NCBI GenBank assembly: GCA_002050235.1
Contig: MWST01000035.1
Coordinates: 67,693-131,692, forward strand
Length of the DNA: 64,000 nt
DNA from: Polyangiaceae bacterium UTPRO1
GTDB lineage: Bacteria > Desulfobacterota > Binatia > UTPRO1
Direction of reading: 5' to 3'
Shown here: piece after piece, positions 9,727-32,662 of the stretch
Position numbering within the stretch: position 1 is the first letter of the stretch
Layout: each line of letters begins with the position of its first letter
Translations under genes and position numbers: made by a program
Notes under the pieces: generated by a model
What the model saw: only the letters and a program-made list of their open reading frames with translations
The model's database searches: none
Told to the model about the DNA's origin: nothing

Positions 9727-9774
9727 CGGCAACTGCGCTCTCCCGAGCTCGGAATGCCGAGCGGGCCCGCGTCC

Positions 9775-14052: not shown

Positions 14053-16748
14053 AGCGCGGGGTCGCAGCGCTGGCGGCGCTGCTGACGCTGACGGCGGTCG
14101 GCAGCGCCAACGCCGCGCTCTGCGGCGACGCCGACGGCGACGGCGCCGTCACGGTGACCGACGCCGTCCGCATCCTGCGCGCGGCGGTCGGTCTGGGCGC
14201 CTGCGTAGCCGCGTGCGATCTCGACGCCGACGGCAGCCTCACCGTCACCGACGGCGTACTGGCGCTGCGCCGCGCCGCCGCCTTGCCGATCGCCGACGCC
14301 TGCCGCTCGGGAACGATCGCCGGACGGCTGCTCGTGCCCCCGGCGAGCGCTGCCGCGCACGTCGAACACGAGCCCAACGACGGCCCCGGCACGGCCGCGG
14401 TCGCGGGCCGGATCGCACCCGGCGACGCGCAGCGGCTCGTCGGCGCGATAGCGGCGGACGACCCGTACGATGCCTGGAGGTTCGTCGCCGCCGGCGCGCT
14501 CGAAATCGAGTTGACGCTCGCCTTTCCCGCCGCCCCCGGCACCGATCTCGACCTGCTGATCGACGCCGGACCGCGCGGGAGCGCGACCTGCGAAAGCGCC
14601 TTCCCCGGCCGCGAGCGCTGCCGCGTCGCGATCACTAGCGCCGAGCCGGCCGCTTTCGACCTCGTCGTCACCGCCGCGGCCGGCTCCCGGCCGTCGCCCT
14701 ACGTACTCGACGTCAGCGCTTCCTCCTCCGGCATCGCGGCGCCCGGCGTGACCGCGCTCCGCGGCGCCGGGGCACCGATCGACATCGAGCCCGAGGTCTA
14801 CCGCGGCGACACGGCGCCGATCGTGATCGGCGAGATCGTCGCGCGTCTGGAGCCGGAAGCGACCGCAGGAAGATCGCCTGCGACTGCGCGCGCGCTCGCG
14901 GCCGTCGCTGACATCGGTCTGCGCGAGCCGATGGCCACGGTGCTCGCGGCCCCGGACGGCACGGTGGTGATGATGCTGCCGACGCTGCGTGCGAGCACGG
15001 CGGCGCGCGGACGCGGTGCCGCTGCCGGACTCGCGGCCAAGCGCGCGCGCGCGGCGGCGCGGGCGCGCACCCGCGCCGCCGCTGCCGCGCTCGCCGCCGC
15101 TCCCGACGTCCTCTTCGCCGCGCCCAACCGCCTGGCGCGTGCGGCGCGGATCCCGCGCGACCCGCTCTATCCACGCCAGTGGCACTACGCCGCGATCGGA
15201 TTGCCGAGCGCCTGGGACGTTACCATCGGCAGCCCTGCCACCGTGGTAGCGGTCGTCGACACCGGCATCCGCAGCGACCACCCGGACCTCGCCGGCCGCC
15301 TCGTTCCCGGCTTCGACTTCATCAGCAGCGCCCAGCGCGCCAACGACGGCGACGGCATCGATCCCGATCCCTTCGACCCTGGCGACCAGCCCGACCGCGA
15401 CGACGGCGGCACGTTCCACGGCACGCACGTCGCCGGCACCATCGCCGCGGCCAGCAACGATACGCTCGGCGTCGCCGGGGTCACCTGGCGGACCTCGATC
15501 ATGCCGTTGCGCGCGCTCGGTATCGGCGGCGGCACGCTCTTCGACATCGCCCAGGCAATCCGGTTCGCGGCCGGTCTCCCCAACGTATCGGGCGTGCTGC
15601 CGGCGATCCCGGCCCGGATCCTCAACCTGAGCCTCACGACGAGCAACGACGACCCGGTCCTGCGCAGCGCCATCGACGCAGCGACGGCCGCGGGGCTGCT
15701 GGTCGTCGCGGCGGCCGGGAACACCGGCGGGCGGGCTACGCTGGTGCCCGCGTCGTATCCGAACGTCATGAGCGTCGCCGCCACCGACCGCCTCGGAGCA
15801 CCAGCGCGCTACTCGACCGCCGGACCCGGCGTCGATCTCGCCGCGCCCGGCGGCGACACGCACCGCGACCGCGACGCCGACGGCTTCGTCGACGGCGTGC
15901 TCAGCACGCGCCTGCCCGGCGTCGAGGACTACGGGCTCCTGCAAGGCACGTCGATGGCGAGTGCGCACGTAAGCGGCGTCGCCGCGCTCCTGCTCGGCGT
16001 CCCCGGCGGCGCCTCGGCGTCGCGCCTGCGCGAGGTCCTGCTCGCAACGGCCGATGATCGGGGCGCTCCGGGACGCGACGATCGCTATGGGGCCGGCATC
16101 GTCGACGCGGCGCGCGCCGTCCGCCTGCTGGGCGGCATCGCGCCCCCGGCCGAGCCCACCCTCACCATTGCCGCGTCGACGGTCCGTATCGCTGCCGACG
16201 AAAGCGTCCTGCAGGTGCCGTTTGCGAATGCGGGCGGCGGCGACCTGGCCTTCGCTCCACCCGTCGTGGCGACGGACGACGGCGAACGCTGGCTCGCCGC
16301 CGCCATCACCGGCGGAGCGCTGCGCCTCGAGGTCGACCGTGACGGCCTCGTCGGAGGATCCCATACCGGACGCGTCGATCTCGCCTCGACCGGCGGCGCC
16401 GCGGCGCTCACGGTGGTCGCCGAGGTCGCAGCGGCGCCGCCCGCCGACATCGGCCCGGTGACGATCCTCCTGCGCGACGCCGCGACCGGGGTGATCCTCG
16501 CCACGACCACGGCCGTCGCCGCCGGCTACTACCGATATCGCTTCACCGGCGTCGCACCGGGACGATACGAGATCATCGCCACCACCGATCGCGACGGCGA
16601 CGGCGCTATTTGCGACGTCGGCGAGGCCTGCGGCGCCTATCCGGACCGCAACGCCCCCGATCCGGTCACGGTCGCTGCCGGCGACATCGTCGGCGCCCGC
16701 GACTTCGCGCTGCAACTAGTCGTCAGTACGGCAGAAAACGCGCCCTGA
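14049..16748 (+). CDS. secreted S8 subtilisin-family serine protease with N-terminal dockerin-like module and PPC-like domain
   Basis: Catalytic triad blocks VVAVVDTGI, HGTHVAGTIAA and GTSMASAHVSGVAALL. Dockerin-like module at nt 14118-14310. The start is uncertain. The signal peptide (L)KRGVAALAALLTLTAVGSANA begins at a CTG (14049), with no in-frame ATG/GTG/TTG nearby. The track ORF 13017..16748 is a shadow extension. Confidence 0.8.
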   Translation: MKRGVAALAALLTLTAVGSANAALCGDADGDGAVTVTDAVRILRAAVGLGACVAACDLDADGSLTVTDGVLALRRAAALPIADACRSGTIAGRLLVPPASAAAHVEHEPNDGPGTAAVAGRIAPGDAQRLVGAIAADDPYDAWRFVAAGALEIELTLAFPAAPGTDLDLLIDAGPRGSATCESAFPGRERCRVAITSAEPAAFDLVVTAAAGSRPSPYVLDVSASSSGIAAPGVTALRGAGAPIDIEPEVYRGDTAPIVIGEIVARLEPEATAGRSPATARALAAVADIGLREPMATVLAAPDGTVVMMLPTLRASTAARGRGAAAGLAAKRARAAARARTRAAAAALAAAPDVLFAAPNRLARAARIPRDPLYPRQWHYAAIGLPSAWDVTIGSPATVVAVVDTGIRSDHPDLAGRLVPGFDFISSAQRANDGDGIDPDPFDPGDQPDRDDGGTFHGTHVAGTIAAASNDTLGVAGVTWRTSIMPLRALGIGGGTLFDIAQAIRFAAGLPNVSGVLPAIPARILNLSLTTSNDDPVLRSAIDAATAAGLLVVAAAGNTGGRATLVPASYPNVMSVAATDRLGAPARYSTAGPGVDLAAPGGDTHRDRDADGFVDGVLSTRLPGVEDYGLLQGTSMASAHVSGVAALLLGVPGGASASRLREVLLATADDRGAPGRDDRYGAGIVDAARAVRLLGGIAPPAEPTLTIAASTVRIAADESVLQVPFANAGGGDLAFAPPVVATDDGERWLAAAITGGALRLEVDRDGLVGGSHTGRVDLASTGGAAALTVVAEVAAAPPADIGPVTILLRDAATGVILATTTAVAAGYYRYRFTGVAPGRYEIIATTDRDGDGAICDVGEACGAYPDRNAPDPVTVAAGDIVGARDFALQLVVSTAENAP

Positions 16749-16891: not shown

Positions 16892-17458
16892 ATGAAATAC
16901 ACGCTCAAGTCTGGACTCACGATCGGGATGATGGTGGCGGCGCTCGCCTTGACCGGCGGCTGCGGCGACAACGACAACAACCACAACGACAACGGCCATG
17001 CGCAGCCGACGCGCACGGCGACGCCGAAGCCGGGCGTGACACCGACGGCGGTGGCACCGACGGTAACGCCGGCGACCGAGCCGACGTCGACGCCGAGCGG
17101 CACCACCGAGCACACGGTCACTTTCGACTTCACCGCTGCGCACGGCATCCAGGCCTTCCAGGTGCGCGTCGCGTATCCGAAGGAGAAGGGCAGCTTCGCC
17201 GGCGCGGCCGATCAGGTCGAGTGCACTGTGGACGGCGGCGGCGGCATCTTCACCAAGAATCACAACGACGCGGCCGGAACCCTGACGTTGAGCGTAGCGA
17301 ACACGTCGGACCTCACCTTCCCGATCAATATCCAGTGCACCTTCGAGGCGACGGCCGCGATCTCGGCGGACGACCTCGATGTGACGGTGCAGGAAGTGAC
17401 GCAGAACAACGCTCCCGGCAACGTCGCCGACCTGAGCGTCGGCAAGTCGGTCTCGTAG
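16892..17458 (+). CDS. lipoprotein with Thr/Pro-rich linker and C-terminal beta-rich (possibly cohesin-like) domain
   Basis: GGAGGAGG upstream of the ATG. Lipobox LALTGGC. Linker PTRTATPKPGVTPTAVAPTVTPATEPTSTPSGTT. The ~115-aa domain contains GIQAFQVRVAYP. The cohesin assignment is inference only. Confidence 0.7.
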   Translation: MKYTLKSGLTIGMMVAALALTGGCGDNDNNHNDNGHAQPTRTATPKPGVTPTAVAPTVTPATEPTSTPSGTTEHTVTFDFTAAHGIQAFQVRVAYPKEKGSFAGAADQVECTVDGGGGIFTKNHNDAAGTLTLSVANTSDLTFPINIQCTFEATAAISADDLDVTVQEVTQNNAPGNVADLSVGKSVS

Positions 17459-17543: not shown

Positions 17544-18941
17544 TCAGAAGGTCTTTTCGAATCCCAGCGTCGGGATGAAATCGGCGCGCAGACCATCCTG
17601 GTTGAGCGGCACCAGGAAGTTCAGGAAGAGGATGCCCTGCTCGCCCACCGCGAAGCGGGCGCCGACGGCGAGATCGAGGACGTCGTTGCGCTTGATGTCG
17701 ACGAAGATCGGCCGACCCTTGAAGTTCTGGTCCTCGTTGACGGGATTGCCGTACTCGTCGACGCCGTCGATCTCGCTGAGCGGCTGCACGAGCGTCGGCA
17801 CGCCGCCGATTCGGCGCACGGCCGGCAGCCGACCCGTGTTCGGGATCCGCCCCTGGGAGCCGAACTCGCTGCGGCCGATGAAATCGACCGTCACCGCGAG
17901 CGCATTCGTCGCCTGCGCGGTGAAGCCGGCGGCATAGCGCGCCTGGCTGCGGTCGATCGTGTTGACGTTGAACTGCACGCCGCCTTGGGCGTGGAACTCG
18001 AGGAAGTCGAGCACGTCCTTGGAGGCTACGAGCGAAGTCTGCAGCCGGGTGTCGCCCGTCCCCTGGAAGTTCTCCTTCTTGCCGGTGGGCAGGGAGAGGT
18101 CGAGGAGCGCCGCCATGCTGACGGGCCGCCGCAGCGGCGCATATTTCGCGCGCAGGTGGATGTCGCCGATGCCGAGCTTGTCGTCGCGGTCGGCCGTGGG
18201 ATCGAGAACGGTGAACGAGCCCGCCACGCCGTTCACCACCGCGGCTTGATCGCCCAAGCCCGAGCGGAAGAGCGTATCGCAGTCGGCCGAGACGCCGAGG
18301 CAGCGCGGATCCGGCAGACGCTCCACCAGCGAGCTGCGGGCGTAGGTATAGAGCACCGGGATGTCGATGTTCACATCGAGGTCGTCGAGCACGCCGTAGG
18401 TGAAGCTGAAGTCCCAGAGCTGGGTCTCGAGATCGAGATGCAGGTTCAGCTCGTCGCCGATCAGCGCCTCGTTGACCCCGTTGTTGTCGAGGTCGGCAGT
18501 CCGCGACGGCCCGAAGAACCCGATCTTGCCGGTCTCGGGAACATAGGCGACCTCGGCGCGATTGCGCAGCTTGTCGATGTTCCTGCCGTTGAACTCGTCG
18601 AACCGGATCCAACTGTAGGATGCGTTCAGGTTGAACTTGTTGCGTCCGAGCGTCACGGCGCGCTCGGAGAAGAGCGGTCCGAACGTCTTCGCCGACCGCT
18701 CCAGCACCTCGAGCTCGGGATTCCACTCGTAGGTATAGCCCGCCGAGGTAGAGAGGGTCGGGATCTGGTTCGCGACCTGCGTCGAGATGGCGGTCGAGAG
18801 CGGCATGATCGCAGCCTCGAGGAAGGTCCCTCGGGCCGACGGCGGAACGAGCGTACGCTGCAGAGTCCGGGCCGCCGCCGGGGTCGCCGCTCCCACCATG
18901 CCCGCCACCGCGAGCGCCGCCACCGAAAATGCCAACCGCAT
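17544..18941 (-). CDS. outer-membrane beta-barrel protein
   Basis: Internal ATG (18939-18941) gives signal peptide MRLAFSVAALAVAGMVGAATPAAA. Alternating beta-strand pattern, with the C-terminus ending LGFEKTF (terminal Phe). Confidence 0.7.
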   Translation of the reverse strand: MRLAFSVAALAVAGMVGAATPAAARTLQRTLVPPSARGTFLEAAIMPLSTAISTQVANQIPTLSTSAGYTYEWNPELEVLERSAKTFGPLFSERAVTLGRNKFNLNASYSWIRFDEFNGRNIDKLRNRAEVAYVPETGKIGFFGPSRTADLDNNGVNEALIGDELNLHLDLETQLWDFSFTYGVLDDLDVNIDIPVLYTYARSSLVERLPDPRCLGVSADCDTLFRSGLGDQAAVVNGVAGSFTVLDPTADRDDKLGIGDIHLRAKYAPLRRPVSMAALLDLSLPTGKKENFQGTGDTRLQTSLVASKDVLDFLEFHAQGGVQFNVNTIDRSQARYAAGFTAQATNALAVTVDFIGRSEFGSQGRIPNTGRLPAVRRIGGVPTLVQPLSEIDGVDEYGNPVNEDQNFKGRPIFVDIKRNDVLDLAVGARFAVGEQGILFLNFLVPLNQDGLRADFIPTLGFEKTF

Positions 18942-19120
18942 GATCCACCCCCCTGCGCGGCGCGGCATGGCCGCCGCCGGCGATCGTTCTACGCCGTCGG
19001 CCGATACCAAAGCCGAAAGCGCGAGGTCAAGCGCCACACGAGGTGCTTGTCGGCGATCGACCCGGTGCCGTTCCGCAGTTGTAAACCCGCAGCTTTCCTT
19101 GCTACGGTCGACGACGCTTC

Positions 19121-19867
19121 ATGAAGATCAGGGGGGCAGCGCGCACCGATCGGGGTCGGGTGCGGCGCGAGAATCAGGACCACTTCGGACTCGCCGCGGA
19201 CCGCGGCCTCGGCTTCGTCGCCGACGGCATGGGAGGACACGCCGGCGGCAGGCGGGCCAGCGAAGAAGCAGTGCGGGTGATCACGGAATCACTCGCCGCG
19301 GACACACCCGGCGGCGCGGACGGCAGTGGACGCCTCCGCCAGGCCATCGAGGAAGCCAACCGCCGCATCTGGGCGCTGCCGCAGTCGGAGCCGGCGCTCC
19401 ACGGCCTCGGGACCACGATAGCCGCCATGCTGATCGAAGGCGGCGTCGGCCACGTCGCCCACGTCGGTGATTCGCGCGTCTACCGCATCCGCAACGGCGC
19501 CATCGAAGCGCTGACGCGCGACCACTCCTATCTGAACGACCTCGCCGCCCGCGGCGTCGAGCTCACCGACCCCGCCGCGCGCGCGCGCTACGAGAGCGTG
19601 CTCACGCGGGCGATCGGCGTCGCCCCGACCGTCGACGTCGACGTGTCCTCTCGTCCGGTCACCCCCGGCGATACCTTCCTTCTCTGTTCGGACGGCGTCT
19701 ACCGCGTCCTCGCTCCCGAGCGGCTCGCGGAGATCGTCGCCGAGGGCGGCGACGATCTCGACGCCATCTGTGCCACCGTCATCGCGCGCACGAACGACGG
19801 CGGCGGTCCGGACAACTGCACCGTCGTCGTGTTGCGCGTCGATCCGGACGGCGCAGGCTCCTCGTGA
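19121..19867 (+). CDS. PP2C-family Ser/Thr protein phosphatase
   Basis: Motifs RTDRGRVRRENQD, ADGMGGHAGG, LCSDGV and GGPDNCTVVV. Confidence 0.85.
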   Translation: MKIRGAARTDRGRVRRENQDHFGLAADRGLGFVADGMGGHAGGRRASEEAVRVITESLAADTPGGADGSGRLRQAIEEANRRIWALPQSEPALHGLGTTIAAMLIEGGVGHVAHVGDSRVYRIRNGAIEALTRDHSYLNDLAARGVELTDPAARARYESVLTRAIGVAPTVDVDVSSRPVTPGDTFLLCSDGVYRVLAPERLAEIVAEGGDDLDAICATVIARTNDGGGPDNCTVVVLRVDPDGAGSS

Positions 19868-22800
19868 AGATCTCCGCCCGTTACGAGGTTCTAGGCCTCC
19901 TCGGCCAAGGCGGGATGGGCGTGGTGTACCACGTCCGCGACACGACCCGCGGCCGCGAGAACGCCCTCAAGACTCTCGCTCCCGGCCGCTCCGAGGACAT
20001 CATCGAGCGCTTTCTTACGGAAGCACAGGTGATGTTCCGCCTCGAGCACGACAACATCGTGCGCGTCTACGATTTCGGCAAGGACGGCGAAACCTACTTC
20101 CTCACCATGGAGCTGATCCGCGGCAAGAACCTGCGGCAGCTCCTGAATGCCCGTCAGAACAAGGGCTTTCCGCTCGCGGAAGTGATCCGCATGGGTATCC
20201 AGGCGGCTGACGCCCTCAACTACGCGCACAGCCAGAAACCCGAGGCCGTCGTCCACCGCGACATCAAGCCCGTCAACATCATGGTCGAGGAAGAGACGGG
20301 GCGCGTCGTCGTCGCCGACTTCGGCATCGCCAAGCTCATGGCCGACGCCGGCGGCGGCGAGACCCAGATCGGCAACGCTGCGACGCATACGGTCTTCGCC
20401 GGCACCGTGCCCTACTCGGCGCCCGAGCAGTTCCTCGCCGGCGGCGGCGGGCGTCGCCTCGACGCGCGCGTCGACATCTACGCCCTCGGCATCGTCCTCT
20501 ACGAGATCTACACCGGCCGGCACTTCTTCGCCGGCCTCTCCGCCGAAGAGGTCGAGCAGCATCATCGTTCCATCGAAACGGGCGAGTGCCCGGTCAAGCG
20601 GCCACACGCCTGCGACCACAAGATCACGACCCTGCCCGAAGCGCCGCAGGCTTTCATCGAGGTCATCGAGAGGGCGATCGCCCGCGACCGTCACGAGCGG
20701 TACCGGACCGCGGCGGAGATGCTCGCCGACCTCCGGGCCTGCGCGGCCGTGGAGTCGGTTGAGGCCGTCGCCGCCGCGCGCCGCACCGCCGAGGCCGCAG
20801 GCGCGCTCGAGGCGGCGACCACGGATTTCCGGCGCGGCGACGAGCTCGAGCGCGAGGCCCAGGCGGCACGCGAGCGCGGCGACGACACGCGCGCCGGCGA
20901 GCTCTATCGCGATGCTCTCCAGGCATACGGCGCAGCCGCCGCGCAGGCGAACGAGCGTCGCAGCCAACGCGCCGCGCAGCAGGCGAAGACGGCCATGCAG
21001 ATCGTCGCCCGGGAAGCCACCGAGCGCGATCTCACAGCGCTCGCCCCGGAGGCGATGAAGCACGCCGCCCAGCTCGTCGCCACGGCCGAGGCGAGCGAGG
21101 TCCAAGGACAGTACGAGCAGGCAACGGCGCAGTACCGCCAAGCCGAGGAGGCGTTTCGCGCCGCCCTCGTCACGGCACGTCAAGCCAGCGCGCGCAAGGC
21201 GATCGAGGACGAGATGCCGGCGCTCCGCGCCGCCCGGGAGGCTGCCGAGCAGGCCGATGCCGCGACGCTCGCCGCCGATGTGTTCGCCGCGGCCGTCCGC
21301 GAGCAGATCCGCCTCGAGGAGGCGCTCGCCGCCGGCGAGCTGACCCGCGTCCGCGAGCTCTTGCCGCAGGTCCGCGACCGGTTCGCCGCCGCCGGCGAGG
21401 AGGCCGGCCGGCGCCTCCACCAGAGCGTCGACGAGGCCCGTGCCGCCATGCGCGCCGCTGCCGCCGAGGCGACCGCGGCAGACGCTCCCCGGCACGCGAA
21501 GGCGGAGAGCATCGAAGCCGAGGCCCTAGCGGGCGCCGCGGAGAAACTGATCGAGCGCGGGCAGCTAGAGCTCGCCGCAGCCCAGCTTGGACGCGCCGCC
21601 GACGCCTACCGCGCCGCCGCATCGGCAGCGGCCCGAGCCGGCGAGCGGGAGGTGCTCGAGAAAGAGCTGCCCGCGCTCCGAGCGGCGCGCGCGGCTGCCG
21701 AGAGCGCCGGCGCAGCGACGCTCGCGGCCGACACCTTCGCAGCGGCGGCACGTGAGCAGGCCGATTTCGAAGCCGCCCTCGCCGCCGGCGAGCTGACCCG
21801 CGTCCGCACGCTCCTGCCGCGGGTCGGCGATGGCTTCGCCGCCGCCAGGCAAGCAGCGATCCTCGCCCAGGCAAGCCGCGCCGCGCTCGCGGCCCGCTCC
21901 GCCATGGCGGCCGCACGCGACGCCGCTATCGCCGCCGGCGCCGAGCAGCTCGTCCCCGACGCGCTCGCCCGGGTCCGCGCGCGCGAGCGCGAGGCCGCCG
22001 CTGCGGAAGAGGACCGGCAATGGGACCGTGCCGAGCAGCTCTACCGTGAGGTCGCGACGGCGTTCGACGAGGTCCGCGCTGCGGCGCTGCGGCGTGCCGA
22101 GGAGGAGCGTCTGGCCGCGGCGCTGGTCGAAGCCCGGAGCTCGATGGAAGCGGCACGGACACGCGCCAGGAACGCGGGAGCCGAGCGCTACGCAGCGGCG
22201 CTAGTAGCCGAGGCGGATGCGCTCGCACAACAGGCCGGCGGAGCCGCGAACGACGCCGCCGGCATGGCGTCAGCGGCCGCCGACTACGCGCGCGCACGCG
22301 AGCGCTACGACGCCGCGATCACCGAGGCCGCGCGTGTCGCTCGCCGCCACGAGCTGCGGGAGACCCTGGCCACCGTCGCCGCGGCGAAGCAGCAAGCGGT
22401 CGATGCCGGCGCTGACGAGACCGCCGAGTTCATAGCCGCGGCCGACGAGCTCGCCGCGGCCGAACGAGCGCTCGCTGCCGACGAGCTGAGCCTCGTCGTG
22501 AGCTCCGCGGCGGCGGCCCGTGAGCGCTTCGCCGCCGCCGAGAACGCCGCTGCGCGCGCCAAGATCGAGGCCGCCGCCGACACGGCGCTCGCCGACGCCG
22601 CGGCGGCCGGAGCGGAAGCGCGGGAGGCAGGCGCCGAAACGCTCGCCGCCGCGGCTTGGGCCGTCGCCGTCGAACAGCAGCAGCGGGCGCTCGCACGCCG
22701 CCGGGACGGCGACTGCAACGCCGTCCCGGGGATCGCCGCGGAAGCCGAGCGGGCGTTCGCAGCCGCGCTCGAGGAGGCCGTGCACGCGGCCTACGAGAGC

Positions 22801-24894
22801 GCGGTCGCAGCGCGGGCGGCGGCCGGACTGGACGGACCCGACGACCAGGCCGCCAACGCTGCGGAGCAGGCGTTCACGGCCGGCGAGCGACGGCAACGGG
22901 AAGGAAAACGCGTCGCCGCGGCGATCGCGTTCCGCAAGGCCGCCGAGAGCTACCGGGCGGTGACCGCGGCGCGAGCCGGTGCCCGCGCCGCCCGCGACGC
23001 CGCGCGCGCTGCGCACCTGGAGGCCGAGGCCGCCGGTGCCGCCGAGCTCGCGGCCGCCGAGCTGGCGCAGGCGAACGAGACGCTGGCGGTCGCCGAGCGC
23101 GCTCTCGAGAGCGGAGACTACGACGGCAGCGAGCGCAGCTTCGCGACGGCGCGCGACGCCTTCGGCCGGGCGCGCGACGCCGCGGTGCGGGCGGCTGCCG
23201 AGCGCGATGCGCAGGCGGCGCGGGCTCGCGTCGAGGACCTGCGGGCGACGCGCGCTCCGGCGGCTGCCGGCTTCTTCGCGCGCCGCAAGCTTGCGAAGGC
23301 GGATGCGGCACACGCGCGCGGTACCGCCGCGGCAACGCGCGGAAATTTTGCGGCCGCCGCCGCTGCCTACAACGAAGCGGCCGAGGTCTTGGCGGCGCTG
23401 CCTGCGGGGACGATACCGCCTCCGGCCGCCCCCACGGCCGAACGGGCGGCGCCGACCGCCGCTGCCGCCGAGACGATGTCGGCCGTCGGTGTGGCGCCCG
23501 GCAGCGAAGCGACCACGCTGGCACCTGACCAGGCGCTCGCAGACGCCACCGTCGTTAGCGATGGCGCCGCGGTTGCCGGCTCTGCCGACGCCACCGTCGT
23601 TGCCGCGGCTGCCGGCGCCGCGACCGTGGTCGCGCGCCAGCAGCCGCCGGCGCCGACCGGACGAGGACTGCCGGTGGCGTGGATCGGCATCGGCGCCGCG
23701 GGCGTCGCGCTGCTCGCCGGCGTCTGGCTGTTGCGCGGCGGCTCCACGGGCACGATGCCACAGCCGGCGCCGCCGCAGGTGGCGGTGCCGGCCGACGCGG
23801 CAGCGTCCAAGGAAGCTGGCGCGGTAGCACCGCCGGCACCGCCGCAGCAGGTGGTCGAGGACCGTCGGCCGGAGCCGGCGGCGCCGACTGCTCCGCCCCA
23901 GCAGATCGCCAAGGTCGAAGAGCCGCCCCCACCCGAGGTTCCGGCGGCCGCCCCCGTCATCAGCGGCTTCGAGCCCCGCGGCAAGACGGTACAGGCCGCG
24001 CCCGGTAGGAGCACGCGCTTCAAGGTGACCGCAAAAGACGACGGCAGCGCTCCCCTGCGCTACGCCTGGTTCGTCGACGACAAAGCCGCAGGCGACGGCA
24101 CGCCGACCCTCGAGCTCACCCCCACCGACGACGACGAAGGAACGACCCGCGAAGTGCGCGCCGAAGTGGCGGTCGGAACCGGTCCCGTGGCGCGCACTGC
24201 GTGGACCGTCACCGTGCCGCGCGCGCCCGTCGCCATCACGCACCAGGTTCCGGCGCCGGCGGAGATCATCGCCGCTCTCGGCGACGCCACCGATTTCAGC
24301 GTCGAGGCCCGCGCCGGACGGGCGCCGGCGAGCGCACTCTCCTATGTCTGGACCGTCGACAAGCGTCCGGTCCACGGCGCCGACGGACCGCGCTTCACGT
24401 ACCGTTCCGAGCACGCCGGCAGCACCGATGTCGAAGTGCGCGTCGAGGCACCGGAGCGCGCCGCCGCGGTCCGGCATTGGACCGTCCGGGCGCACCCGCG
24501 GGAGCCCGTCGCCGTGCCGACGCAGGTCGCGGCGCTGCCGCCGCGCCTCGCGCCGACGCCGCTCGCGCCGCACGCCGGCAGCGATCCGCGGCGCGAGCTC
24601 GAGAGCTGGATCGCCTCCTATCGCGACGCGTATCAGCGCAAGAACGTCGACGAGCTCCTGGCGCTCGGTGTCGTCAAGCCCGAGAACCGCAGCAAGCTCG
24701 CGGCCGCGTTGAACGATCTGGTCGATCTCGAGGTGCGCATCGCCAGGAGCGCCATCGACGTGCATAGCCCCGACAGCGCGGTGGTCACGCTGACGCGCGA
24801 GGACAGCTTCAATGCCGGCGGCCGGCGCCAGACGCAGTCGATCGACATCAGGAAGAACCTGCACAAGGTGAACGGCTCGTGGGTCGCGCAATGA
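19864..24894 (+). CDS. giant Ser/Thr protein kinase (Hanks type) with Ala-rich helical repeat array, one TM helix and an extracytoplasmic Ig-like/NTF2-like region
   Basis: GTG start overlapping the phosphatase stop (GTGA). Kinase motifs GQGGMGVVY, HRDIKPVN, DFGIAK and SAPEQ. TM helix LPVAWIGIGAAGVALLAGVWLL at nt 23668-23736. 1676 aa. Confidence 0.85.
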   Translation: MKISARYEVLGLLGQGGMGVVYHVRDTTRGRENALKTLAPGRSEDIIERFLTEAQVMFRLEHDNIVRVYDFGKDGETYFLTMELIRGKNLRQLLNARQNKGFPLAEVIRMGIQAADALNYAHSQKPEAVVHRDIKPVNIMVEEETGRVVVADFGIAKLMADAGGGETQIGNAATHTVFAGTVPYSAPEQFLAGGGGRRLDARVDIYALGIVLYEIYTGRHFFAGLSAEEVEQHHRSIETGECPVKRPHACDHKITTLPEAPQAFIEVIERAIARDRHERYRTAAEMLADLRACAAVESVEAVAAARRTAEAAGALEAATTDFRRGDELEREAQAARERGDDTRAGELYRDALQAYGAAAAQANERRSQRAAQQAKTAMQIVAREATERDLTALAPEAMKHAAQLVATAEASEVQGQYEQATAQYRQAEEAFRAALVTARQASARKAIEDEMPALRAAREAAEQADAATLAADVFAAAVREQIRLEEALAAGELTRVRELLPQVRDRFAAAGEEAGRRLHQSVDEARAAMRAAAAEATAADAPRHAKAESIEAEALAGAAEKLIERGQLELAAAQLGRAADAYRAAASAAARAGEREVLEKELPALRAARAAAESAGAATLAADTFAAAAREQADFEAALAAGELTRVRTLLPRVGDGFAAARQAAILAQASRAALAARSAMAAARDAAIAAGAEQLVPDALARVRAREREAAAAEEDRQWDRAEQLYREVATAFDEVRAAALRRAEEERLAAALVEARSSMEAARTRARNAGAERYAAALVAEADALAQQAGGAANDAAGMASAAADYARARERYDAAITEAARVARRHELRETLATVAAAKQQAVDAGADETAEFIAAADELAAAERALAADELSLVVSSAAAARERFAAAENAAARAKIEAAADTALADAAAAGAEAREAGAETLAAAAWAVAVEQQQRALARRRDGDCNAVPGIAAEAERAFAAALEEAVHAAYESAVAARAAAGLDGPDDQAANAAEQAFTAGERRQREGKRVAAAIAFRKAAESYRAVTAARAGARAARDAARAAHLEAEAAGAAELAAAELAQANETLAVAERALESGDYDGSERSFATARDAFGRARDAAVRAAAERDAQAARARVEDLRATRAPAAAGFFARRKLAKADAAHARGTAAATRGNFAAAAAAYNEAAEVLAALPAGTIPPPAAPTAERAAPTAAAAETMSAVGVAPGSEATTLAPDQALADATVVSDGAAVAGSADATVVAAAAGAATVVARQQPPAPTGRGLPVAWIGIGAAGVALLAGVWLLRGGSTGTMPQPAPPQVAVPADAAASKEAGAVAPPAPPQQVVEDRRPEPAAPTAPPQQIAKVEEPPPPEVPAAAPVISGFEPRGKTVQAAPGRSTRFKVTAKDDGSAPLRYAWFVDDKAAGDGTPTLELTPTDDDEGTTREVRAEVAVGTGPVARTAWTVTVPRAPVAITHQVPAPAEIIAALGDATDFSVEARAGRAPASALSYVWTVDKRPVHGADGPRFTYRSEHAGSTDVEVRVEAPERAAAVRHWTVRAHPREPVAVPTQVAALPPRLAPTPLAPHAGSDPRRELESWIASYRDAYQRKNVDELLALGVVKPENRSKLAAALNDLVDLEVRIARSAIDVHSPDSAVVTLTREDSFNAGGRRQTQSIDIRKNLHKVNGSWVAQ
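21181..22086 (+). repeat. 453-bp internal duplication within the kinase gene
   Basis: The identical 24-mer gccggcgagctgacccgcgtccgc occurs at 21331 and 21784 (offset 453 nt = 151 aa). The flanking protein segments ...MPALRAAREAAEQADAATLAADVFAAA... and ...LPALRAARAAAESAGAATLAADTFAAA... align throughout. Unit boundaries are approximate. Confidence 0.6.
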
Positions 24895-25511
24895 AGCTCC
24901 GTATGTTAACGGCACTGCGCATGACCGGACACGACGGGAGCAGCGCCGGCGCAGCGCGGGCCGCCGCGACGGCGATATTGCTCGGCGTAGCCCTCGGAGG
25001 TGCGGTCGCCGCGCGCTCCGCGGGAGCGACCGTAGTGGCGAACATGACCACAGCGGCGCAGGCCGCGGCCGCCGACCGCATATTCGTCGGCACGGTAGCA
25101 GCGGTCACGAGTCGCCCCGTTGCCGCCCGGCCCCAGTGGTTCGAGACGGCCGTGCGCTTCACGGTCGAGGAGGCGGTTGCCGGCACGTTCCCGGCGAGCG
25201 TCGAGCTCGTGTACTCCGGCGGCGAGGTGGGCGGCGTTCGCCAGCGCGTCGACGGCATGCCGGAGCTCGCGGTCGGCGAACGCTACGTCGTGCTCCTCGA
25301 GCCCGAGCGCACGCCGCCGCTCGCGAGTCCGTTCGTCGGCTTCAACCAAGGCCTCTACCGCGTGATCGGCGATGCCCGCACCGCCGCGGTCGTCCGCGAT
25401 CGTCAGGGGCGGAGCCTCGCAAGCAGCGCCGCCCAGGTGGGAGCGCGCGGCGCCGGCGGCGATCCCACGCTCGACGCCTTCCTCGACTTCTTGCGAGCCG
25501 CCCGCAAGTGA
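24891..25511 (+). CDS. secreted hypothetical protein
   Basis: ATG 24891 overlaps the kinase stop (ATGA); an alternative GTG lies at 24879. Hydrophobic segment AAATAILLGVALGGAVAA. No family recognised. Confidence 0.55.
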   Translation: MKLRMLTALRMTGHDGSSAGAARAAATAILLGVALGGAVAARSAGATVVANMTTAAQAAAADRIFVGTVAAVTSRPVAARPQWFETAVRFTVEEAVAGTFPASVELVYSGGEVGGVRQRVDGMPELAVGERYVVLLEPERTPPLASPFVGFNQGLYRVIGDARTAAVVRDRQGRSLASSAAQVGARGAGGDPTLDAFLDFLRAARK

Positions 25512-26425
25512 CGACGCTCCTGAGCTGCCTCACCGCCGCACTGCTCGCTGGTCTCGCGCTCGCGGCACCGGCCGTCGGTCAGTCGTGCCCCTGGACGCCG
25601 GACGACGCCTACGCGTTCATCAATGCCGGGAGCCGGGAGTGCCCGGCGGATCCGGAGGTCTTCTGGCACAACGCCACCGTCGAGTTCGATTGCAGCTTCT
25701 TCGCTGCGGCCGGGACGGCCATCTACTGCGGCAGCGACGGACACGCCTGTGTCGAGCTCTGCCAGCAGGCGGCCGGCACCTGGAACACCGACCTACCGGG
25801 ACGCTTCACCTTCGTCGACGCCGAGAACACGGTGACTTTCTGCGACCCGAACGACGGCAAAGTCTCGATCGGCGGCACGTCGATGACGCTCTGCGACGGC
25901 AAGTCCCTGTACGCGAGCAACGTGCTCGCCGTAACGCTCAGCATCTTCTATACTGGAGGCTCGCAGTCGGGGCACCTGATCGACGCCAACATCACCGTCA
26001 ATCAAGCCTTCCTATTTTCGCCGGCCAGCTTCCGGGCGACGCTCGCCCACGAGCTCGGACACGTCCTCGGGCTCTCCCATCCCGACGAGTGCGGCGACGA
26101 CTACAACGTGCTCATGCGCTCCGCGTCCCTGTTTGCGCCGCAGGGCCTTTGTTTCGTCAGCGACCCGACGGCCGCCGACATCCGCGGCGCCGAACGCATA
26201 TATCCCCTGGTCGGTCCGACGCCGGGGCTCTGCGGTGACGCCGATCTGAGCGGCGCCGTCACTGTCAGCGATGGCGTCCAGGTGCTGCGTGCCGCAGCCG
26301 GGCTCTCCAGCGCCTGCACGCCGCAACGCTGCGACGTCGACGGCAGCGGCGAGATCACGGTCACCGACGGCGTGCACGTGCTGCGCACCGCCGCCGGCCT
26401 GCCGTCGATCTCGGCCTGTCCCTGA
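25508..26425 (+). CDS. secreted M10 (matrixin-like) zinc metalloprotease with C-terminal dockerin-like module
   Basis: GTG 25508 overlaps the upstream stop (GTGA). Signal peptide TTLLSCLTAALLAGLALAAPAVG. Zinc motif HELGHVLGLSH (nt 26048-26080) followed by NVLM (candidate Met-turn). Dockerin-like module at nt 26228-26422. Confidence 0.8.
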   Translation: MTTLLSCLTAALLAGLALAAPAVGQSCPWTPDDAYAFINAGSRECPADPEVFWHNATVEFDCSFFAAAGTAIYCGSDGHACVELCQQAAGTWNTDLPGRFTFVDAENTVTFCDPNDGKVSIGGTSMTLCDGKSLYASNVLAVTLSIFYTGGSQSGHLIDANITVNQAFLFSPASFRATLAHELGHVLGLSHPDECGDDYNVLMRSASLFAPQGLCFVSDPTAADIRGAERIYPLVGPTPGLCGDADLSGAVTVSDGVQVLRAAAGLSSACTPQRCDVDGSGEITVTDGVHVLRTAAGLPSISACP

Positions 26426-26431
26426 GCGACC

Positions 26432-26460
26432 TGCGTCCGGCGGATACACCGCCGGACGCA
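26432..26460 (+). terminator. intrinsic-terminator-like hairpin closing the PP2C-kinase-protease operon
   Basis: Perfect 12-bp stem tgcgtccggcgg / ccgccggacgca with loop ataca, 7 nt after stop 26425. The downstream tctgtatcttt is moderately T-rich. Confidence 0.5.
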
Positions 26461-26556
26461 AGACCCTCTGTATCTTTAGACCACTCTTAGGCATCATGCC
26501 GATGACGCGGATGGACCGCGTCGGGAGCTCCGCTCGCGCGGATGCTCGGGAGGGAG

Positions 26557-29496
26557 ATGATGGCGAATCCGCTGGTCGAGCTGCAACATCTCGGACAGTC
26601 CCCCTGGCACGACAACATCAGTCGCGACCTCCTGACCTCGGGAAAGCTCGCGAAGATGGTCGCCGCCGGCGACATCACCGGACTAACCTCCAACCCGACG
26701 ATCTTCGAGCATGCGGTCGCTCGGAGCAAGGATTACGACGATGCCATCCGCGTCCTCGCCCGCAAGGGCAAGAACGCAGAAGACATCTTCGACGCCCTCG
26801 CGATCGAGGACATCCGCGCCGCCGCCGACGTGTTCGCGCCCGTGTACGCCCGCAGCGGCGGCGCCGACGGCTACGCCAGCATCGAAGTCGCACCGAAATT
26901 CGCGACCGACACGGAAGCGACGATCAAGGAAGCGCACCGCCTGTGGAAGGCCGTCGCACGCCCGAACCTGATGGTGAAGATCCCGGCGACGCGCGAAGGC
27001 GTCCCCGCCATCGCCCGCTGCATCGCCGACGGCCTGAACATCAACGTGACCCTCATTTTCTCGCTCGAGCGCTACGACGAGGTGATGGATGCCTACCTCG
27101 CCGGCCTCGAGAAGCGGCTCGCCGCCAGGAAGCCGATCGCCAGGATCGCATCGGTAGCGAGCTTCTTCGTGAGCCGTGTCGACACGGCCGTCGACGCGCA
27201 GCTCGAGCGGAAGATCGGCGAGGCGGGTCCCGACCAGCAGGCGCAGCTGCGGCAGCTCGTCGGCAAAGCGGGGATCGCCAACGCCAAGCTCGCTTACGCC
27301 GCTTTCCGCAGGAAGTTCGCCGGCGCGCGCTGGACGGCTCTAGCCGCCCAGGGAGCACGCCTGCAGCGCCCGCTCTGGGCCAGCACGTCGACCAAGAACC
27401 CCGCCTACCCCGACACCTACTACGTCGAGGCGCTGATCGGTCCGGACACCGTCGACACGCTGCCGCCGGCGACCATCGCCGCCTACAAAGACCACGGTAA
27501 GCCGGCGCCGCGGCTCGCAGAGGGCCTCGACGAAGCCGCCGCGATCCTGCAGCGCATCGAAGACGCCGGCATCAGCATGGCCGCCGTCACCCACAAGCTC
27601 GAGGTCGACGGCGTCGCCGCGTTCGCGAAGTCGTTCGAATCGCTGATCGCGGTCGTGTCGGCATCGCGCGAGGCGTTCCTGCTGACGGATCTCACCATGG
27701 CCAAGCTCGGATCATCGAACCGGGCGGTGCAGGCTACGCTCGCCGCGATGGATGCAGCGAGGCTTCCGGAGCGCCTCTGGAAGCAGGACCCGACGCTGTG
27801 GAAGGCGGACGATCCGACACACCAGGCCGAGATCGCGGCCCGCATGGGCTGGCTCGACGTCGCCGACCTCATGCTCGGTAAGGTGGACGAGCTCACCGCC
27901 TTCGCCGACGAAGTGCGCGCCGCCGGCTTCACCCGCGCCGTGCTCTGCGGCATGGGCGGCTCGTCGCTCGCCCCGGAAGTACTGCGGCGGACATTCGGCG
28001 TCGCCAAGGGCCACGTCGACGTGCAGGTGCTCGACTCGACCGATCCCGCGGCCGTCGCCGCCCGCGAACGCTGGAGCGATCCGGCGAAGACGCTCTACAT
28101 CGTGTCGTCGAAATCGGGCAGTACGACCGAGCCGAACGTCTTCTTTCAGTATTTCTACGATCGCGTGCGCAAGGCGCACGGCGACCAGGCCGGCCGGCAC
28201 TTCGTCGCCATCACCGATCCCGGCACGGCGATGGAAGCGCGAGCGCGAGCGCACGGTTTCCGGCGCGTCTTTCTGGCCCGGCCCGAGATCGGCGGGCGCT
28301 ACTCGGCGCTCTCGCATTTCGGTCTCGTGCCGGCGGCCCTCATGGGCATCGACGTCGCCAAGCTCCTGCAGCGTGCCAAGCGCATGATGCTCGCGTGCGG
28401 CCCGACGATCCCGGCAGCGCGCAATCCCGGGCTCTACCTCGGCGCCGTAATCGGGGCGCTTGCCAAGGCCGGCCGCGACAAGCTCACGTTCATAGTCGAC
28501 AGAAAGGTCGACACCTTCGGCTACTGGCTCGAACAGCTGATCGCCGAGTCGACCGGCAAGGAGGGTACCGGCGTCGTTCCCGTCGAGGGCGAGCCGGTCG
28601 GCCGCCCTGATGCCTATGGCAGGGACCGCGTCTTCGCCTACATCCGCCTCGACGGCAGCCAGGAGCGCGCCGTACAGAGCCTCGCCCGCGCCGGCCATCC
28701 GGTCGTGGCCTTCCGCTTGAAGGACGCCTACGACCTCGGCGGCGAGTTCCTGCGCTGGGAGATCGCGACGGCCGCGGCGGGCTGGGTGCTCGGCATCGAT
28801 CCCTTCGACCAGCCGAACGTGCAGGAGTCGAAAGACAACACCGTGCGGCTATTGCAGGTGTATCGGGATAGCGGCGCGCTTCCCGATCCCGGCGGCGTCG
28901 TCTCGGTGAACGCCACCGACTTCGCACGTCGCCTGGAGGCGCATCTCAAGCTGGTGCGCAAGGGCGACTACATCGCCGTGACCGCATACGTGGAGCGCAC
29001 CGGCGAGCGCGAGCAGATCCTGCGGCAGATCCGCGCCGCCCTCCGCGACCGCTCGCGGAACGCCACCACCGTCGGCTACGGCCCGCGCTTCCTGCACTCG
29101 ACCGGCCAGCTCCACAAGGGCGGCGCTGCGAACGGCGTCTTCATCCAGCTCTCGGCGGAGCCCGGCGAGGATCTGGCGATCCCGGGTGAAGCTTTCAGCT
29201 TCGCTACGCTCGAAGCGGCGCAAGCCCTCGGCGACTACCAATCGCTGGCTGCGCGCGGCCGGCGAGTGCTCCGCGTATCGCTCGGCGTCGACGTCGACCT
29301 CGGCCTGCGAACGATCCTCGCGGTCGTCGGGGGCAGCGCGCCCAAGCGGCGCCGAACCACGGTGAAGAAGAAGCCCGCGGCGCCGAAAACGAAGACCAAG
29401 ACCAAGCCCGTACGCCCGCAGCCCGCGAAGACGCGGCGGCCGACCCCGAAGACCAAGAGCGCGCGGCGTCGGACGCGGGCGCGGCGCGGCCGATGA
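26557..29496 (+). CDS. tal: bifunctional transaldolase / glucose-6-phosphate isomerase with basic C-terminal tail
   Basis: Transaldolase blocks GQSPWHDNISR, TSNPTIF and MVKIPAT. PGI blocks GMGGSSLAPEV, SKSGSTTEP and GGRYSALS. GGAGG lies just upstream of ATG 26557/26560, and the track start 26542 is also possible. Confidence 0.85.
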   Translation: MMANPLVELQHLGQSPWHDNISRDLLTSGKLAKMVAAGDITGLTSNPTIFEHAVARSKDYDDAIRVLARKGKNAEDIFDALAIEDIRAAADVFAPVYARSGGADGYASIEVAPKFATDTEATIKEAHRLWKAVARPNLMVKIPATREGVPAIARCIADGLNINVTLIFSLERYDEVMDAYLAGLEKRLAARKPIARIASVASFFVSRVDTAVDAQLERKIGEAGPDQQAQLRQLVGKAGIANAKLAYAAFRRKFAGARWTALAAQGARLQRPLWASTSTKNPAYPDTYYVEALIGPDTVDTLPPATIAAYKDHGKPAPRLAEGLDEAAAILQRIEDAGISMAAVTHKLEVDGVAAFAKSFESLIAVVSASREAFLLTDLTMAKLGSSNRAVQATLAAMDAARLPERLWKQDPTLWKADDPTHQAEIAARMGWLDVADLMLGKVDELTAFADEVRAAGFTRAVLCGMGGSSLAPEVLRRTFGVAKGHVDVQVLDSTDPAAVAARERWSDPAKTLYIVSSKSGSTTEPNVFFQYFYDRVRKAHGDQAGRHFVAITDPGTAMEARARAHGFRRVFLARPEIGGRYSALSHFGLVPAALMGIDVAKLLQRAKRMMLACGPTIPAARNPGLYLGAVIGALAKAGRDKLTFIVDRKVDTFGYWLEQLIAESTGKEGTGVVPVEGEPVGRPDAYGRDRVFAYIRLDGSQERAVQSLARAGHPVVAFRLKDAYDLGGEFLRWEIATAAAGWVLGIDPFDQPNVQESKDNTVRLLQVYRDSGALPDPGGVVSVNATDFARRLEAHLKLVRKGDYIAVTAYVERTGEREQILRQIRAALRDRSRNATTVGYGPRFLHSTGQLHKGGAANGVFIQLSAEPGEDLAIPGEAFSFATLEAAQALGDYQSLAARGRRVLRVSLGVDVDLGLRTILAVVGGSAPKRRRTTVKKKPAAPKTKTKTKPVRPQPAKTRRPTPKTKSARRRTRARRGR

Positions 29497-32154: not shown

Positions 32155-32158
32155 TTCG

Positions 32159-32662
32159 TCACTCTCCTTCGCTGGCTCGTTGCGGTCGCTTGAGCTTCGG
32201 CTCGATGCCGGCTTCGAGAAAGGGCTCGATCCAGCCGTGGCCGGCATCGGGCCAGGCGTCGAACCGCGGTAGATAGGGCTTGATGTCGAGTATCGGCGTC
32301 CCGTCGAGGAGGTCGAGGCCGCGGACGCGGATCTCGCCGCGCTCGAGGTCGACCGACTCCAGACCGACGCTGGTGAGCCCGAGCGGCGATGGACGATCGG
32401 GGGCGCGGGTAGCGAAGAGCCCCCGCTTCGGCCCGCCGCGCGGCGGCCGCACCTTGGCGCCCCAGCCGCCGCTACGGTGGAAATGGAAGATCAGCCAGAT
32501 CCGTCCGAAGCCCGCCAGGTCCGCGAGCGCCGCGCGATACGGCGGCGCGATCTCGATGACCCCCGCCGCATCCGGTGCGGCCGCAGGCTGGTGCGGCGCG
32601 TCCTCGCGGCGCCTCCACGGCGTCCGGGCGCGGCCGATGATGTGCAGCCCGAGAGCGATCAC
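32159..32662 (-). CDS. trmO: tRNA (m6t6A37) methyltransferase TrmO/TsaA family
   Basis: 167 aa with ATRAPDRPSPLGLTSV and DGTPILDIKPY, typical of the YaeB/TsaA fold. Confidence 0.75.
   Translation of the reverse strand: MIALGLHIIGRARTPWRRREDAPHQPAAAPDAAGVIEIAPPYRAALADLAGFGRIWLIFHFHRSGGWGAKVRPPRGGPKRGLFATRAPDRPSPLGLTSVGLESVDLERGEIRVRGLDLLDGTPILDIKPYLPRFDAWPDAGHGWIEPFLEAGIEPKLKRPQRASEGE

Follow-up and report, generated by a model that had tools for sequence, protein, structure and literature searches.

A secreted P3–metzincin gene cassette behind a receptor-like kinase in Binatia, with P3 a candidate TIMP-like pro-domain or inhibitor

Four overlapping genes in a Binatia genome

Binatia are an uncultured class known from metagenome-assembled genomes (MAGs). 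The DNA analysed here is a stretch of 64,000 nucleotides from Polyangiaceae bacterium UTPRO1 of this class (GenBank assembly GCA_002050235.1, contig MWST01000035.1, positions 67,693 to 131,692 of the forward strand), referred to as the window. It holds a block of four plus-strand genes that encode, in order, a PP2C-type phosphatase, a Hanks-type Ser/Thr kinase, a small secreted protein that we call P3 and a secreted metzincin (Table 1). The window is ~70% GC, and its real genes are recognizable by a third-position GC content (GC3) of ~0.85–0.9; all four open reading frames (ORFs) match this value, and the ORFs that compete with them do not. Each gene overlaps the next by four nucleotides, with GTGA at the PP2C/kinase junction (19864–19867), ATGA at the kinase/P3 junction (24891–24894) and GTGA at the P3/metzincin junction (25508–25511). 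The PP2C/kinase overlap recurs in the related loci L001 and L002. The P3 start is ambiguous, as ATG codons at 24891, 24903 and 24921 are all possible; the N-terminal extension is kept at the protein level in close relatives. By its sequence, the 7.3-kb block appears to consist of two translationally coupled gene pairs arranged head to tail, PP2C–kinase and P3–metzincin. The genes, the exact positions of the three overlaps and the closing hairpin had all been described in an earlier sequence-only reading of the window, and each was recovered in our analysis.

The limits of the unit can be set at both ends. Upstream, we considered and rejected a fifth coupled gene (ATGA, 19121–19124): ORF 17985–19124 is non-coding (GC3 0.65), and the true upstream gene lies on the minus strand at 17544–19037 (GC3 0.89), so the unit starts at 19121. 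The divergent intergenic region is the presumed promoter region, and a promoter scan of 18.9–26.7 kb returned no sigma-70-like site under a sigma-70 model that is uninformative for this lineage. Downstream, the hairpin folds with −29.2 kcal/mol (z = −5.8), and 0 of 200 shuffled sequences folds as well. It has no U-run, which is why a consensus terminator scan did not pick it up, and it is probably a terminator or 3′-end stabilizer of a kind that lacks a U-tract. The terminator scan identified a single weak plus-strand element inside the unit, at 26127 within the metzincin gene. Given the three overlaps, this lone weak internal element and the strong hairpin after the last gene, the PP2C/kinase pair is probably co-transcribed with the P3–metzincin cassette in this genome.

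Table 1. Coordinates of the genes, protein regions and other elements of the four-gene block, as positions in the window.
Feature	Position	Strand	Size, basis or remarks
Divergent intergenic region, presumed promoter region of the unit	19038–19120		83 bp
Gene 1, PP2C phosphatase	19121–19867	+	248 aa; ORF, GC3 0.86–0.87
Gene 2, Hanks Ser/Thr kinase	19864–24894	+	1676 aa; GC3 0.86–0.87
Kinase catalytic domain, aa 7–286	19882–20721	+	Pkinase match, motifs
Cytoplasmic Ala/Glu/Arg-rich region of kinase, aa ~300–1230	20761–23553	+	930 aa, 36% Ala; composition
Single transmembrane helix of kinase, aa 1269–1290	23668–23733	+	Sole hydrophobic segment in a Kyte–Doolittle scan
Kinase ectodomain	23734–24891	+	~385 aa (aa 1291–1676); Pro-rich linker, two PKD/Hoc-like Ig domains, C-terminal domain
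Gene 3, P3, secreted protein with a predicted NTR/TIMP-like OB-fold	24891–25511	+	206 aa from ATG 24891; GC3 0.86–0.87; family profile, AlphaFold2 (AF2) model
Thr47 codon, predicted first residue of mature P3 (…A-G-A↓T-V-V…)	25029–25031	+	AxA rule
Gene 4, metzincin: signal peptide, Cys-rich catalytic domain, C-terminal dockerin-like module	25508–26425	+	305 aa from GTG 25508; GC3 0.86–0.87
Zinc motif HELGHVLGLSH (HExxHxxGxxH), aa 181–191	26048–26080	+	Invariant in alignment A7
Met-turn region V-L-M-R-S, aa 201–205	26108–26122	+	M203 invariant in alignment A7
Dockerin-like module, C-terminal 65 residues of metzincin	26228–26422	+	Two D-x-D-x-[DS]-G…D loops between cysteines
Hairpin	26432–26460	+	Perfect 12-bp stem, 5-nt loop, 7 nt past the metzincin stop

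P3 and the metzincin as a gene cassette

The product of gene 4, which the sequence-only reading had called an M10 protease, is by its predicted fold a secreted MMP-like metzincin. The M10 label is sub-threshold by sequence, where Peptidase_M10 (PF00413) scores 18.5 bits against a cut-off of 24 and the match spans the zinc motif only, but the fold predicted for an orthologue speaks for it. The zinc motif and Met-turn are invariant across the 19 homologues of alignment A7, and the metzincin family profile matches MMP-1 at E = 1.4e-3 in a PDB profile search. The fold was tested on P0158, a natural P3–metzincin fusion and 61%-identical orthologue of the window protein, with an alignment (A4) that included 15 natural long fusions. 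The resulting model has a predicted local distance difference test score (pLDDT) of 82.6 and a predicted template modelling score (pTM) of 0.75. Its protease domain matches the catalytic domains of MMP-1, -9, -12 and -13 (TM-score 0.59–0.70, probability 1.0) and also serralysin PrtC. The cysteine-switch pro-peptide motif of MMPs (PRCGxPD) is absent from both the metzincin and P3, so latency must work differently here.

The C-terminal module of the metzincin contains two segments of the form D-x-D-x-[DS]-G-x-[VI]-T-V-x-D. It scores 16.7 bits with Dockerin_1 (PF00404), below the cut-off of 22.9, and the precomputed matches of its homologues are likewise classed as ‘weak’. Dockerin-bearing proteins were matched at 5e-4 to 4e-3 in the PDB profile search, and the tail of the orthologue model resembles the clostridial dockerin CaDoc0917 (TM-score 0.78, root mean square deviation (rmsd) 1.7 Å, probability 0.99, with a Foldseek E-value of 0.34). 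The module shares 74%, 62% and 57% identity with the modules at the N termini of three proteins encoded at 12.2–14.3 kb, and a dockerin-like DNA pattern, with 6 matches against 0.06 expected, is confined to these three proteins and the metzincin. The earlier remark that the protease carries the same docking module as the 12.3–16.7 kb cluster is thereby borne out. No cohesin was noticed in the window, in which no search aimed at cohesins was made.

P3 belongs to a large family that has no Pfam model. Its homologues form 95 clusters, all from MAGs labelled Binatia or ‘Deltaproteobacteria’, and an exhaustive profile search expanded this set to a P3-like family of 8,326 representatives at E ≤ 1e-3, or 1,584 at E ≤ 1e-10, counted at 50% identity. 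Most members are stand-alone proteins of ~190–210 aa. Conservation at the N terminus was assessed in 146 representatives that are mutually ≤50% identical: at the predicted cleavage site, position −1 is A in 127 of the 146, +1 is T or S in 131, +3 is V, I or L in 131 and +5 is P in 48. These residues (motif A↓T-T-V) rank among the most conserved of the family. The cleavage region reads A-G-A↓T, and the family consensus has no Cys; P3 thus has no lipobox and is not a lipoprotein.

The AF2 model of P3 is a beta-barrel with a short N-terminal helix (residues 54–60) and a C-terminal helix (194–205), and its pLDDT exceeds 90 in the core (residues ~55–180). The nine top PDB matches of this model in Foldseek are all NTR/TIMP OB-folds, with probabilities of 0.85–1.0, E-values of 1.6e-3 to 4.5e-2 and TM-scores of 0.27–0.55; they include the PCOLCE NTR domain, agrin NtA, TIMP-2 and TIMP-1 (with MT1-MMP). 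The N-domain of the fusion model again matches NTR/TIMP, with agrin NtA at an rmsd of 3.2 Å over 106 columns. These models indicate that P3 probably folds as an NTR/TIMP-like OB-barrel, which may reflect either homology to TIMPs or convergence.

P3 and the metzincin occur together well beyond the window. In 17 of 17 species-representative genome loci the metzincin gene comes after the P3 gene, and so it does in all other loci for which sufficient sequence is available. Where genes have been called (L001, L002, L006 and L008), the two overlap by 4 nt or 1 nt, as they also do in L044, L047, L048 and L049. In four independent 90%-identity clusters (P0152, P0158, P0160 and P0174), the two proteins are fused into one chain of ~505 aa that comprises a signal peptide, P3, a linker, the metzincin and the dockerin, with the linker in the place of the protease signal peptide. 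One such fusion, L004/L017 (10001–11524 of contig_87900, MAG MFD00822.bin.1.245), shares its MAG with the four-gene locus L011 and lies in a neighbourhood unrelated to that locus, preceded by an M16 peptidase and followed by an M23/LysM peptidase.

The same association extends to the wider family. Among the top 150 P3-like proteins, 15 are 600–1600 aa long and have the P3-like domain at the N terminus. Peptidase_M10 comes straight after this domain in seven of the ten that were scanned, and an HExxHxxGLxH motif aligns with that of the window protein in 14 of the 15. In other lineages, a Peptidase_M10 gene lies directly downstream of the stand-alone P3-like gene at 6 of 6 loci. These amount to four independent contexts, drawn from unlabelled metagenome contigs and from MAGs that carry the labels Dormibacteraeota, Glassbacteria and Bacillota. 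The two genes of these distant pairs overlap by 4 nt at one extreme and lie 39 nt apart at the other, and the M10 partners that we looked up directly score 30.8–54.9 bits against the cut-off of 24. On the strength of the adjacency, the natural fusions and this wider M10 context, P3 is very probably a dedicated partner of the metzincin, and it belongs with the protease rather than being the third component of a kinase-centred sensor.

A further P3-like protein, P0270 (621 aa), combines the N-terminal domain with a metzincin-like domain whose degenerate zinc motif reads REFGHMAGL instead of HExxHxxGL. It may be a pseudo-protease that has kept its pro-domain.

The PP2C–kinase pair and the flanking genes

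The first two genes encode an ordinary signalling pair of the common Stp/Stk kind; the sequence-only reading had noted that PP2C/Hanks-kinase pairs are common. The gene 1 product matches Pfam PP2C_2 (PF13672; 1.5e-16, 61 bits) and the Stp1-type model NF033484 (1.6e-59; 201 bits, below the equivalog cut-off of 230), matches that identify it as a predicted cytoplasmic Stp1/IreP-like PP2C-type Ser/Thr phosphatase. The kinase matches Pkinase over residues 7–286 (5.3e-46, 157.6 bits) and NF033483 (7e-71, under the equivalog cut-off), and its catalytic motifs are intact: GxGxxG (GQGGMG), HRDIKP, DFG and APE. Its domain order is that of a predicted single-pass receptor-like Hanks kinase with an Ig-domain ectodomain. 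The long Ala-rich region between the catalytic domain and the membrane has no Pfam match and contains no known domain. In translation it shows a ~65-aa segment (KELPALRAAR…LLP.V.D.FAAA) that is repeated in copies ~150 aa apart; a tandem repeat finder applied to the DNA of the gene gave short GC-rich repeats only, the protein-level repeats being too diverged for detection in DNA. Identity over this region is 64–76% within the subclade of the window, and in deeper relatives short stretches only are retained, at 38–44%. The ectodomain gives weak PKD matches (8e-4), and its profile matches the Ig domains of phage Hoc (3e-6); there are two Ig domains in the window kinase and three in most relatives (alignment A5). 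The last ~110 aa form a conserved domain without a recognized fold. An NTF2/SnoaL-like identity for this domain is unsupported by Pfam or PDB profiles, and we do not claim it.

Immediately downstream of the unit (26542–31094, plus strand), a gene for a 984-aa transaldolase–phosphoglucose isomerase fusion overlaps zwf by 4 nt (29493–29496), and gnd follows on the opposite strand (31147–32247, minus). In almost all Binatia loci examined, the P3–metzincin cassette is flanked by pentose-phosphate genes, whose orientation varies. The gene for delta-aminolevulinate dehydratase (11151–12125 in the window) is another recurrent neighbour.

Upstream, three consecutive plus-strand genes (12166–13155, 13171–14052 and ~14100–16748) encode secreted proteins with the same Cys-bracketed dockerin-like module after the signal peptide; the third protein is an S8 subtilase by its Peptidase_S8 match (3.8e-53). 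Counting the metzincin, four secreted proteins with a dockerin tag, two proteases among them, are encoded in a span of 15 kb, and the locus and this nearby cluster outline a surface-docked extracellular protease system in Binatia.

Two further genes lie between the subtilase and the four-gene unit. The first (16892–17458, plus strand) is an ORF of 188 aa with a lipoprotein-like start (…LTGGCGD), a Thr/Pro-rich linker and no Pfam match. The second is the minus-strand gene next to the presumed promoter region; it encodes a 497-aa protein that has a signal-peptide-like N terminus, no Pfam match and a C-terminal …FEKTF resembling the ending of an outer-membrane barrel. This protein is conserved as a neighbour at 49–81% identity, being encoded upstream of PP2C in L001/L014, L010, L011 and L015, and in L020 it adjoins the metzincin and the dockerin cluster after rearrangement. 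We regard it as a candidate docking or export partner. In L002/L003, a second PP2C and an FHA-domain guanylate/adenylate cyclase are encoded ~3 kb past the cassette (13749–15465, minus strand), with a dockerin-like protein between, which hints at a larger Ser/Thr-phospho-signalling neighbourhood in this deep-branching kinase-linked lineage.

A proposed role for P3 and its relation to known systems

We consider it likely that P3 is a detached TIMP-like pro-domain or inhibitor of the MMP-like metzincin, in a cassette that is separable from the PP2C–kinase pair. P3, we infer, would be exported by a Sec signal peptide, fold as a TIMP/NTR-like OB-barrel and act as the pro-domain of the metzincin made as a separate chain, binding the enzyme stoichiometrically (1:1), a ratio that the 4-nt start/stop overlap would favour. 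It would hold the metzincin latent, and possibly aid its folding, in the periplasm or during export, and latency would end once the metzincin is docked outside the cell and P3 is removed. The inhibitory element would be the mature N terminus of P3 (Thr-Val-Val here and T-T-V-V-P in the family), which would occupy the active-site cleft and bring its free alpha-amino group close to the zinc, as in TIMPs and serralysin inhibitors. We infer this N-terminal wedge from the conserved A↓T-T-V motif and, by analogy, from the mode of action of TIMPs and serralysin inhibitors; it is a tentative proposal, to which we would give somewhat less than an even chance.

Several observations weigh against this interpretation. 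P3 and four distant relatives have no Pfam or NCBIfam match, including to TIMP (PF00965) and NTR (PF01759), and the P3 profile searched against PDB sequences gave no TIMP or NTR protein and spurious matches only, to designed helical repeats on the Ala-rich C-terminal helix; in Pfam and PDB sequences there is thus no sequence-level link to either family. The structural likeness is marginal by score in the models, where the best E-value is 1.6e-3, none reaches 1e-3 and generic OB-folds rank close behind NTR/TIMP. Mature P3 contains zero cysteines, so that it lacks the disulfide-tethered N terminus that defines TIMPs and is not a TIMP in the strict sense. The cleavage site on which the wedge depends was placed by the AxA rule only, and the pLDDT drops to ~61 at residues 41–50 of the fusion model. 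Finally, the TIMP-like protein of Listeria is a released substrate, by analogy with which other partner roles for P3 are possible.

The sequence-only reading had instead placed the 206-aa protein in a kinase-centred sensing and processing unit of four components. The ectodomain would bind P3 and/or the docked protease, or be cleaved by the protease, and either the activity or products of the protease would be reported to the cytoplasm through the kinase and PP2C, or the kinase would control the release of the protease from P3. In its favour, the order PP2C–kinase–P3–metzincin is found in 10 of the 16 informative species-representative loci (seven complete and three truncated by the contig), and in all seven metagenome loci where the kinase ectodomain has a true orthologue, P3 lies downstream, as does the metzincin where the contig allows. 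No kinase orthologue without a downstream P3 was found among the genome and metagenome loci, in a search confined to relatives with at least 56% ectodomain identity, a range that counts against reading too much into this result. (The metagenome matches L034–L043, at 26–42% identity over the Ig repeats only, have none of the locus genes and were set aside as unrelated Ig-repeat proteins.) The four-gene order persists to 44–54% metzincin and 37–46% ectodomain identity despite rearranged flanks (L018–L020), and both deep branches of the neighbour-joining tree built for the metzincins contain kinase-linked loci, which suggests an old linkage with loss in one subclade. The ATGA overlap that joins the kinase and P3 genes is also on this side, and it occurs in the window and in L010/L027 only; L010 and L027 (71% P3 identity) appear to be the same sequence. 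The conservation is, however, partial. In sister lineages the cassette lies directly beside tal/zwf with neither kinase nor PP2C, in five species-level loci (L021–L025) and also in L006 and L008, and the fused paralogue L004/L017 and all loci from other lineages are also kinase-free. The kinase/P3 junction is variable, with gaps of about 20 nt (L012) and about 120 nt (L028) in the same clade and of 79–190 nt up to 1.05 kb elsewhere. In L015 a 1.05-kb insert (8909–9958), holding an ORF of 93 aa that begins like a signal peptide and, on the minus strand, another of 191 aa, separates the kinase stop from the P3 start, so any translational coupling of the two is broken there. Moreover, the functionally unrelated tal (transaldolase) and zwf (glucose-6-phosphate dehydrogenase) adjoin as constantly as the kinase, a sign of high regional synteny that makes kinase adjacency weak evidence of function in this class. 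The interpretation given in the sequence-only reading is thus supported in part; what it listed as a secreted 206-aa partner is very probably a partner of the protease, and not a component of a kinase-centred unit. We judge the four-component unit to be improbable, and give an equally low chance to a functional kinase–protease link in general; the PP2C/kinase pair is a lineage-specific neighbour of the cassette.

Two other accounts keep P3 with the protease and give it a different task. P3 could be a folding or secretion chaperone that acts in trans on the metzincin and is later degraded, its N terminus reflecting recognition by signal peptidase only. The 14 cysteines of the mature protease, the N-terminal pro-domain position that P3 holds in the natural fusions and the preference of signal peptidase I for AxA↓T are all consistent with this account. 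Positions +1 and +3 are, however, conserved at least as strongly as −1 and clearly above −3, which exceeds the needs of signal peptidase; the predicted fold resembles that of an inhibitor family; and most known chaperone pro-domains also inhibit, so the roles overlap. We therefore think a chaperone of this kind unlikely, and a folding-chaperone role is compatible with the pro-domain or inhibitor role that we favour. Alternatively, P3 could be a substrate or cargo from which the metzincin frees an active fragment whose target would be the envelope or other cells. The precedent is the metzincin of Listeria, which cleaves and releases an adjacent TIMP-like lipoprotein (PMC8235301). P3 is no lipoprotein and does not have to be freed from a membrane, its gene order is the reverse of that in the Listeria pair, and its frequent N-terminal fusion to a catalytic domain suits a pro-domain better; a cargo role is accordingly very unlikely.

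If P3 is the pro-domain or inhibitor that we propose, the main interest lies less in a four-gene sensor than in a TIMP-like family, widespread in bacteria, of pro-domains or inhibitors for MMP-like proteases, and genomic and domain context provides a testable function for thousands of ‘hypothetical proteins’. The wedge, if true, would represent a form of bacterial matrixin latency unlike the cysteine and aspartate switches and a bacterial parallel to TIMPs, with a bearing on the origin of the NTR/TIMP fold. A kinase link, if true, would tie Hanks-type signalling to extracellular proteolysis in an unusual way. It is doubtful that both hold at once, that is, that P3 founds a very large bacterial family of TIMP/NTR-like, cysteine-free proteins that block zinc with an N-terminal amine and that the Binatia cassette is in addition gated or read by the kinase ectodomain. 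Under that joint reading, the family would be either fused to its protease or split off as a coupled gene and would be a prokaryotic counterpart, possibly a relative, of the TIMP–MMP system.

The first half of the block has its nearest counterpart in the pairs of Stk1/PknB kinase and Stp1 PP2C. In both, the genes are adjacent and overlapping, with the phosphatase first, followed by a single-pass kinase with an extracellular sensor. The window kinase differs in that it has no PASTA domains; its ectodomain instead consists of Ig/PKD-like repeats and a C-terminal domain of no assigned fold, a 930-aa Ala-rich spacer is inserted on the cytoplasmic side and the pair is linked to a protease cassette.

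The sequence-only reading had found the four-gene arrangement unfamiliar, but an inhibitor-like ORF that overlaps the gene of a secreted protease is a recognized arrangement. The closest one described is that of the potempin bicistrons of Tannerella forsythia, in which the stops of the potempin ORFs overlap the starts of KLIKK-peptidase genes or lie within 5 bp of them and the two are co-transcribed (PMC9890683). P3 is likewise a small secreted ORF directly upstream of a secreted protease with a start/stop overlap, and its predicted OB-fold beside an MMP-like metzincin recalls PotA, an OB-fold inhibitor of the MMP-like metzincin karilysin (PMC9890683). Potempins are outer-membrane lipoproteins of 98–132 residues with a lipobox Cys, and they are specific inhibitors that act through inserted loops by a ‘bilobal’ or standard mechanism (PMC9890683). 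P3, in contrast, is larger (~160 residues when mature), has no Cys and is not a lipoprotein; its predicted barrel is NTR/TIMP-like, rather than that of a loop-wedge inhibitor, with terminal helices and a conserved free N terminus. P3 also occurs as a fused N-terminal pro-domain.

Similar likenesses and differences emerge from the comparison with TIMPs. The mature N terminus of TIMP-1 reads C-T-C-V-P, and in TIMPs the N-terminal Cys1 is tethered by Cys1–Cys70 and Cys3–Cys99 disulfides. Inhibition by TIMPs is lost when one more Ala is added at the N terminus. P3 resembles the TIMP/NTR group (MEROPS I35) in its predicted OB-barrel topology, its MMP-like partner and its conserved N terminus (T-T-V-V-P in the family). 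It differs in having no Cys1, Cys3 or disulfides, no Pfam TIMP/NTR match and marginal similarity scores, and in being bacterial and encoded in cis with its target. TIMPs inhibit with the mature N terminus at the metzincin zinc (PMC9890683), which is the position that the wedge would give to the N terminus of P3.

In our literature search on Binatia together with dockerins or a bacterial NTR/TIMP family, Mtz–Tim of Listeria monocytogenes was the sole earlier report of a bacterial TIMP-like protein with a metzincin. This pair of a metzincin and an adjoining TIMP-like protein is conserved across many Firmicutes, is associated with phages and mobile elements and is under the control of a CI/Cro switch; Mtz cleaves the lipoprotein Tim and releases it, and Tim is not a demonstrated inhibitor (PMC8235301). 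The metzincin gene comes first in Listeria, followed by that of the lipoprotein, whereas the non-lipoprotein P3 comes first here.

The serralysin inhibitors (AprI/APRin of Pseudomonas and Inh of Erwinia and Serratia), encoded beside aprA/prtA, insert an N-terminal trunk whose terminal residue sits at the zinc of an M10 metzincin. They are periplasmic beta-barrel inhibitors of M10 metzincins, encoded in the same operon as the protease, and in these respects resemble P3 as we picture it. Unlike P3, they are eight-stranded barrels of ~10 kDa that are encoded downstream of the protease, in an operon for a type I secretion system, and they are not known to occur fused to it. Serralysin inhibitors are also discussed in relation to the Listeria pair (PMC8235301). 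The P3–metzincin cassette extends this known kind of system, a co-transcribed protease with its cognate inhibitor or pro-domain, and here, in Binatia, its two parts are encoded by a coupled gene pair, the protease bears a dockerin tag and the genes follow that of a receptor kinase.

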